In this document: positions 21,623-22,893 of the stretch, one piece after another
Position numbering within the stretch: the first letter of the stretch is position 1
Layout of the letters: every line of letters begins with the position of its first letter
IMG/VR virus record: IMGVR_UViG_2706796291_000001
Location: 32,001-96,000 of that record
Reading direction: 5' to 3' (one strand)
Length of the DNA stretch: 64,000 nt
Source of the DNA: a virus
Lineage: Duplodnaviria > Caudoviricetes
The notes under the pieces: model-generated
Told to the model about the DNA's origin: nothing
What the model saw: only the letters and a program-made list of their open reading frames with translations
The model's database searches: none
Program-made: the position numbers and the translations under genes

Positions 21623-21651
21623 TTGACAAATTCATTTGATTATGGTATAAT
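21623..21651 (+). promoter_or_regulatory. Sigma-A promoter
   Basis: TTGACA-17-TATAAT. Confidence 0.85.
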
Positions 21652-21690
21652 AATATATGTAAGTTAAAAAAAACGTAAGGAGAACATAAT

Positions 21691-21798
21691 ATGGGGTGCG
21701 TAATTCCAATTGTATTAATTTTATTATTTATAGCAAATCCAGTTTTGGGTTTAGTTGCAACAGCTATTGTATTAGCAATAGCAAGTCTTAAAAAATAA
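21691..21798 (+). CDS. 35-aa hydrophobic peptide (not in ORF track)
   Basis: AAGGAG RBS; MGCVIPIVLILLFIANPVLGLVATAIVLAIASLKK. Confidence 0.65.
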   Translation: MGCVIPIVLILLFIANPVLGLVATAIVLAIASLKK

Positions 21799-21812
21799 GG
21801 AGAAAAACACAA

Positions 21813-22469
21813 ATGACACAAAGTAAAACACTCACAGTACAAGAAGCGCTTAACGAACTTAAAGTCCTTGACAAAAGAATTGAACGTAAACTTGGAGACA
21901 CTAAATATGTAGGTGTTGTTCAAGAAGACAAACTTGTTTATCCTGCGTCATCAAAAGGTGATAAAGATAAATTCATTTCAGAGGCAAAATCTAGTATTGA
22001 TTCATTGCTTGATTTGATTGCTTACCGTCATGCTTTGAAAGCTGGTGTATTACGTTCTAATGCATTAACAGAAGTTGTAATTGGAGACAAAACAATGACA
22101 GTTGCAGAAGCAATTGATTATAAAACTTCAATCCAAAGTGAGAAAGATTTGGTTCAAACTCTTGTTAATGATTTGACTCAAGCAACAGCTAAGATGACAC
22201 GTATCAATAATGATATTGATACGGCTCTTGAAAAGAAACAAAACAGTTTGTTAGGTTCAGAGAAAGATGATAAGAGTGCTGATTTTATTAAATTTTTGAA
22301 AGAACAAGCTGAGAGCGAAAAAGCGACAGTTCTTGAATTGGAAGTTGGTAAAGCTCTTGTAAGTGATTACACTAAAGCTAAACTTGATTCAATTGAACAA
22401 TTTGAACAAACAGTTGATTTCAAATTAACTGCATCGAATGTTTCAACAGAAATTACCGTTGAGTGGTAA
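21813..22469 (+). CDS. DIP1984/DUF6847-like coiled-coil protein
   Basis: TVQEALNELK.LDKRI, SNALT, MTVAEAI, D..L..SN.STEI pattern (family recognised from memory). Confidence 0.55.
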   Translation: MTQSKTLTVQEALNELKVLDKRIERKLGDTKYVGVVQEDKLVYPASSKGDKDKFISEAKSSIDSLLDLIAYRHALKAGVLRSNALTEVVIGDKTMTVAEAIDYKTSIQSEKDLVQTLVNDLTQATAKMTRINNDIDTALEKKQNSLLGSEKDDKSADFIKFLKEQAESEKATVLELEVGKALVSDYTKAKLDSIEQFEQTVDFKLTASNVSTEITVEW

Positions 22470-22482
22470 TAGTTAAGTTATA

Positions 22483-22856
22483 ATCATGTTATGACGAACA
22501 ATCTAAAGTATAGATTTCCAGATAGTTCTGTTTTTCAGAGGTTCTTATAACTGGAAATAAATAATAAATATGACGAACTTCTGATACTATAATATAAAAA
22601 TATGATGAATCTCAAAAAGAGAGGTTATGTATTCAAGACGGTAAGGATGAGTCCTTATTCGTAGGAATAGATAAAACTACTTCATATATTATAGTTCAAA
22701 GCTCATGCTTTATAGCTTAGAGTTTATATCTTATATTGGATAATGAATCCAGTTATAGATTAAGTTTGAAGGGTTAAATTTTCTTAAAAATCCTAGAGTT
22801 ACGTTTTGTGACTTTCTATATCAGTTTGGTTGTACGCTAGGCTGTCATAACATGGT
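22483..22856 (+). ncRNA. Structured RNA with 7-nt repeat tract
   Basis: 13-bp closing stem atcatgttatgac/gtcataacatggt, internal hairpins, heptamers at 22684-22782. Confidence 0.65.
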
Positions 22857-22858
22857 AA

Positions 22859-22893
22859 AATAAGGACTACTTCGGTAGTTCTTATTTTTTTTT
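22859..22893 (+). terminator. Intrinsic terminator
   Basis: aataaggactac-TTCG-gtagttcttatt plus T-run. Confidence 0.9.

Follow-up and report, generated by a model that had tools for sequence, protein, structure and literature searches.

A knotted noncoding RNA with a row of heptamers accompanies a small helical-protein gene in a Lactococcus phage, phage T5, hundreds of other phages and some bacteria

The closest described relative of the protein discussed here is the DIP1984 family (NCBIfam NF038048; Pfam DUF6847, PF20935), whose canonical members are about 150 aa long and are represented by structure 3KDQ from Corynebacterium diphtheriae; no function or RNA partner is described for this family in the papers that we searched. 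Several other systems pair a protein with a repeated or structured RNA. In Bacillus subtilis, TRAP on the trp leader and HutP on hut mRNA bind evenly spaced single-stranded repeats in cis, with TRAP using 11 repeats. Type III toxin-antitoxin systems (ToxIN, AbiQ, CptIN, and TenpIN) combine a protein gene with an adjacent repeat-containing, pseudoknotted RNA, in which the antitoxin lies upstream as near-identical 34- to 57-nt repeats. GOLLD and ROOL are large ornate RNAs of bacteria that form RNA-only complexes, and GOLLD is linked to tRNA arrays according to the title of a reference in PMC12286853. Finally, Ro60 with Y RNA and tmRNA with SmpB are gene-linked structured RNAs whose ends pair and that have a dedicated protein.

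We compared these systems with a locus in a 64,000-nt stretch (the window; positions 32,001 to 96,000 of the 130-kb IMG/VR virus record IMGVR_UViG_2706796291_000001). The 218-aa protein encoded at this locus is 94 to 95% identical to ORFs of Lactococcus phages 949, AM11, and relatives, while the RNA is 83 to 99% identical to unannotated DNA in the same phages, so the window belongs to a 949-group (Audreyjarvisvirus) phage. The unit lies at the end of a tRNA/tmRNA region that includes a phage-encoded tmRNA (19020-19364) and a skipping-rope RNA (RF02924; 19685-19763), and a degenerate tRNA-like sequence with a T-arm motif (21528-21595), which was not called by ARAGORN or Rfam, lies just before its promoter.

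A preliminary description made from the sequence alone had proposed that this locus is a self-contained unit of promoter, 35-aa hydrophobic peptide, 218-aa coiled-coil protein, and ORF-less 374-nt RNA closed by a 13-bp stem and followed by a UUCG terminator, and every element that it named was found where it had been placed. All features are on the + strand. A predicted sigma-70 promoter at 21623-21651 matches the consensus at 12 of 12 positions (TTGACA-17-TATAAT with an extended -10) and is predicted to drive the peptide (21691-21798), the protein (21813-22469), and the RNA (22483-22856) as one transcript. No ORF was found in 22470-22946, where the longest stop-free stretch is 40 aa in any frame, and an intrinsic terminator with a UUCG loop is predicted at 22857-22888, followed by the gyrB promoter at 22905. 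The closing stem (22483-22495/22844-22856) has 13 bp, or 14 with a terminal G-U, and an end stem of at least 13 bp had a probability of 0.001 in dinucleotide shuffles. The whole segment, folded together with the terminator, had a z score of -6.8.

We next assessed the row of 7-nt units that had been described in this segment. Seven units occupy 22684-22732 (block 1; family consensus A-A-A-G-Y-U-Y), a 22-nt linker carrying an inserted 7-bp hairpin follows at 22733-22754, and four units occupy 22755-22782 (block 2). A run of seven or more A....T units arose in 1 of 20,000 dinucleotide shuffles, and this is the only run of six or more in the window. A profile trained on other loci scored the tract 32.7, against a shuffle mean of 8.3 and a maximum of 20.8, and autocorrelation peaked at lags 7 and 14 (z = 4.5 and 3.8). 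In contrast, the repeated 10-mer TATGACGAAC, to which the preliminary description had drawn attention, is present at 22490 and 22569, but some 10-nt direct repeat arises in 16% of shuffles and the second copy is missing in phages 949 and PMBT69, so it is not meaningful. The 35-aa peptide (phrog_9039) is probably cotranscribed here but is not a conserved part of the system, since tblastn found it only in 949-group loci and it is absent before the gene in PMBT69.

The 218-aa protein matches PHROG 1491 over residues 4 to 218 (E = 8e-68) but, contrary to the proposed DIP1984/DUF6847 assignment, hit neither family HMM. No match was obtained for the protein in Pfam or NCBIfam, for the genome, or for any of 146 family members in NCBIfam, whereas short-form controls scored 162 to 181 bits. 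PADLOC likewise gave no real family. At 218 aa (family range, 202 to 222 aa), the protein is about 60 residues longer than canonical members, and its family is mostly phage borne. An AlphaFold2 model (pLDDT 87) consists of long helices with short beta hairpins, and 3KDQ was its top structural match in both Foldseek (E = 0.013) and VIA-align (Z = 10.3, against 7.7 for the next match; 150 of 152 residues aligned; rmsd, 10.1 Å). Because this Z is below the 13 advised for helical proteins, the rmsd is high, and profile similarity is weak (E = 0.075; hhalign probability, 21%), we consider the protein a probable remote, longer relative with a predicted DIP1984 fold. A sequence search of the PDB gave nothing significant. 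The protein is acidic (pI 5.0) and has no known RNA-binding domain, yet K17, R22, R72, K76, and K104 are kept in 95 to 100% of 146 homologues. Homologues occur in 723 phage records, including T5-like, rV5-like, Vibrio, Pseudomonas, Bacillus, and C. difficile phages, and in 3,590 clusters at 50% identity.

Since the preliminary description had named two computational outcomes that would count against it, namely, homologous genes without a downstream closed stem and heptamer tract, and a periodicity no better than that of shuffled sequence, we examined whether the RNA accompanies the gene elsewhere; neither outcome was observed. All ten annotated homologous loci first examined have a gap of about 340 to 490 nt without a credible gene after the stop codon, and most of 58 nonredundant viral loci have a significant heptamer run 120 to 280 nt after the stop. 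Among these 58 loci, a regular-expression anchor found the RNA core in 37 and a covariance model of the 3′ core found it in 15 more at E < 0.001 (52 of 58), with two further loci hit weakly and the last four showing it by eye or weakly. The model hit 76 of 80 metagenome loci (70 at E < 0.001; 43 nonredundant), and the four misses are contigs that end in or just after the gene. When we searched instead with a DNA pattern for the 3′ core only, 30 of 31 matches with a heptamer run of three or more had the gene upstream and the remaining contig was too short, whereas none of 17 matches without a run had the gene.

Gene and RNA are both present in coliphage T5 (ORF080 of AY587007) and in Bacillus and Clostridia genomes, although the system is rare in Bacillota overall (4 of 401 genomes sampled). 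In the Bacillus paralicheniformis, haynesii, and pumilus groups, the module is chromosomal, among ordinary genes, with no tRNA genes within 2.5 kb. It also occurs on three contigs labeled as giant-virus bins (L066, L142, and L160; names beginning GVMAG), which may be misbinned phage DNA; Foldseek also gave weak hits to Yasminevirus and Mimiviridae proteins.

The comparison revealed an inner stem, P3, and two pseudoknot helices that the preliminary description had missed. From 5′ to 3′, the RNA consists of the 5′ strand of the closing stem P1 (22483-22496, pairing with 22843-22856), a GAA(A) linker, the PK1 strand (22498-22503, pairing with 22828-22833), the PK2 strand (22508-22514, pairing with 22815-22821), a variable hairpin domain (22515-22683) that differs even between close relatives and holds the chance second TATGACGAAC, the heptamer tract, and a conserved 3′ core (22792-22841). 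This core comprises an AAAU motif and stem P3 (22792-22796 with 22837-22841), which encloses the partners of PK2 and PK1; the PK2 partner lies in the loop of a short hairpin (22810-22826) seen by eye. The motif before P3 (22780-22796 and homologues; consensus UUCGAUAAAAUCC, in some loci UUCAAAUCC) resembles a tRNA T-loop sequence, but no T-stem flanks it. PK1 and PK2 cross P3 and are therefore pseudoknots. They were not used to pick anchors, and cognate segments paired better than swapped ones (7.1 versus 4.7 for PK1 and 6.9 versus 5.0 for PK2; permutation P ≤ 5e-5 for each; negative control, P = 0.85), although the loci are related, which inflates all P values, so that permutation P values overstate independence. 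P3 shows 53 two-sided changes in 36 sequences, and its unspecified middle pairs also held in most true RNA-first matches. P1 extends 13 pairs when G-U is allowed and 5 when A-C is allowed, which points to the + strand. Since P1 and P3 anchors were chosen for pairing, however, the statistics for these stems, including this strand comparison, are partly circular.

Across loci, the tract has period 7 (z = 23, against 2.8 in the variable domain), and this period is visible without selection when columns are counted back from P3. The median is 11 units, with a common layout of 7 units, 9 nt, 4 units, and 8 nt; the linker is about 9 nt without a hairpin in most relatives, and the last unit ends 7 to 9 nt from P3 in most loci (9 nt here). 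No conserved pairing was found within or between blocks (block 1 with block 2, P = 0.25), which fits a protein-bound strand, and block 1 shows no excess folding. However, ViennaRNA does not predict the tract to be more open than the variable domain (0.43 versus 0.40 unpaired), and unit counts vary from about 8 to 13 with some tracts broken by hairpins, which fits a rigid closed ring poorly.

Canonical DIP1984/DUF6847 genes in Bacillota genomes (loci L165 to L178) are followed, 0 to 230 nt after the stop codon, by a different conserved RNA of about 190 to 230 nt, with GGUAG/CUACC and GAGGGYGGG motifs, that was matched neither by Rfam nor by our model. This RNA has cognate long-range pairing (P = 3e-4 and 5e-5) and a period-7 stretch (z = 6.4 in 12 loci), but the RNA of the long-form family is larger, with a different core and a different unit consensus. 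The period therefore accompanies the fold across two protein subfamilies and two RNA scaffolds, which is the best indirect evidence that the protein reads the heptamers.

Although the RNA is almost always directly 3′ of the stop codon on the same strand, exceptions indicate that it behaves as a free-standing RNA gene rather than only a 3′ untranslated region. In locus L208 (2890-3260), it lies upstream of the gene and contains a complete tRNA-Pro (2995-3070) in its variable domain, while in L218 (8690-9590) and L224 (8690-9600), two RNA copies with irregular heptamer tracts follow one gene, separated by tRNA-Met. In one Clostridium locus (L110; 2492-3232), a frameshifted gene is followed by only the first 90 nt of the RNA and then an unrelated gene, although this single case could be an assembly artifact. 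tRNA genes lie within about 2 kb in 38 of 58 viral loci; this linkage is absent in the Bacillus chromosomal copies and may only mark a hotspot for accessory genes. No third conserved partner, reverse transcriptase, or nuclease was found among 121 neighboring ORFs, of which PhoH was the commonest (10 of 121). In two related Clostridium loci (L193, 3001-6633, and L194; C. saccharoperbutylacetonicum and a relative), the module sits between a gene with a faint WCX-domain hit and a Ro60, YrlA-like RNA, and RtcB cluster; since this arrangement was seen in no other locus, we rejected a general link to RNA repair.

We could not assign the RNA to a described family. Rfam 15 covariance models, including GOLLD, ROOL, tmRNA, Y RNA, and RAGATH-27, gave no match over the RNA in the window, in 20 homologous loci at the gathering score, or in a further 14 and 6 loci at E ≤ 1; the best RAGATH-27 score was 18 bits against a cutoff of 76 and fell outside the RNA. 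PAK_P3 sRNA1 and sRNA2 (PMC4933390) are 83 to 134 nt and do not resemble it. Literature searches on DIP1984, DUF6847, 3KDQ, T5.085, RAGATH-27, and heptamer-repeat phage RNAs found no description, although most subscription papers fell outside these searches, so this is not proof of novelty. Compared with TRAP and HutP, the RNA shares periodic repeats without conserved pairing, but the protein has an unrelated fold, no TRAP or HutP domain was found, ligand-binding or attenuator logic is absent, and the RNA is a closed, knotted, free-standing unit next to the protein's own gene. GOLLD and ROOL form RNA-only complexes, whereas this RNA has a fixed protein partner and a periodic tract. With respect to Ro60 and SmpB, no TROVE or SmpB domain, tRNA-like acceptor end, or tag frame was found, and the phage has a separate tmRNA.

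Taken together, these results indicate that the gene and the RNA are more likely than not the two halves of one ribonucleoprotein, and they partly support the interpretation first offered, that the protein oligomerizes on the RNA with one subunit per heptamer. At the sequence level, our data establish that the RNA's ends fold together into a conserved knotted core (P1, P3, PK1, and PK2), that a tract of about 11 heptamers without conserved pairing sits at a fixed distance from that core, and that gene and RNA travel together. Expression, processing, RNA binding, stoichiometry, and biological role are inferred. In this view, the RNA would be cotranscribed with the mRNA and released as a stable species, and the protein would oligomerize along the tract, one subunit (or dimer) per 7-nt unit, reading the invariant A1 and U6 with a conserved basic patch, while the knotted core would nucleate or cap the assembly. 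The RNA would act as a ruler that fixes the particle at about 11 binding units. More tentatively, and only weakly inferred, the particle may be an accessory of phage tRNA arrays that protects or manipulates translation or RNA turnover during infection, for example, as a stable decoy for host RNA-targeting proteins.

The best surviving alternative, although we consider it unlikely, is an RNA-controlled effector, in which the protein is toxic or forms a filament or pore on its own and is held inactive until the RNA is cleaved or depleted. This reading is compatible with the ribonucleoprotein model and differs in purpose. Strict gene-RNA linkage, the stand-alone promoter-gene-RNA-terminator unit, sporadic presence in bacterial genomes, and joint decay in L110 are consistent with it. 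However, the analogy to type III antitoxins that had been suggested is not supported by homology: no homology to ToxN, AbiQ, CptN, or TenpN was found (a single AbiQ hit, E = 0.0075, came from 1 of 146 family members), the predicted fold is different, no catalytic motif is evident, and the units are 7 nt, degenerate, within one RNA, and downstream as a rule.

Less likely still is a cis-acting autoregulatory or stability element, a structured 3′ untranslated region bound in the manner of TRAP or HutP that controls its own mRNA or readthrough into downstream genes. The usual position of the RNA directly after the stop codon fits this possibility, but the arrangements in L208, L218, and L224 do not, downstream genes are not conserved, and no alternative terminator or antiterminator fold is conserved. 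A protein whose only role is to regulate itself would also be hard to maintain.

It is doubtful that the RNA works by itself, as a ribozyme, an RNA-only oligomer like GOLLD or ROOL, or a T-loop/U-turn decoy array, with the protein as a chaperone or the tract binding a host protein instead. The elaborate core, the frequent location in tRNA arrays, and the finding that 92% of unit junctions read U-Y-A, a U-turn-like motif, with GUUCAAA being a commonest rephased unit, are consistent with this reading. However, no RNA was found without the gene in the RNA-first search, and no ribozyme family matched. Only 20% of rephased units match the T-loop UUCRA, and no T-stems flank them. Hosts also span Bacillota and Gammaproteobacteria, so one host ligand is less likely than the linked protein. 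Lastly, that the protein is a virion part and the repeats are DNA binding sites or an origin is very unlikely: although phrog_1491 and many records carry the label "tail fiber protein," the gene lies in tRNA or early regions rather than tail modules in siphoviruses and myoviruses alike and in Bacillus chromosomes, the predicted fold is not a fiber, and long-range covarying helices with many G-U pairs favor one folded strand.

Few classes of large bacterial or phage noncoding RNAs have a dedicated protein partner, and we know of none in which a heptamer row beside a knotted core sets protein stoichiometry. If our favored reading is correct, which we consider more likely than not, this would be a widespread, undescribed class of ribonucleoprotein in which a knotted RNA templates a defined oligomer of a DIP1984-fold protein. 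It would be shared by T5, a model phage, by many other large phages, and by bacterial chromosomes, and the whole DIP1984/DUF6847 superfamily would be RNA-binding proteins with dedicated partner RNAs. It would also correct the common "tail fiber" label, give a first functional lead for DUF6847/DIP1984, and offer a natural RNA-programmed protein scaffold.
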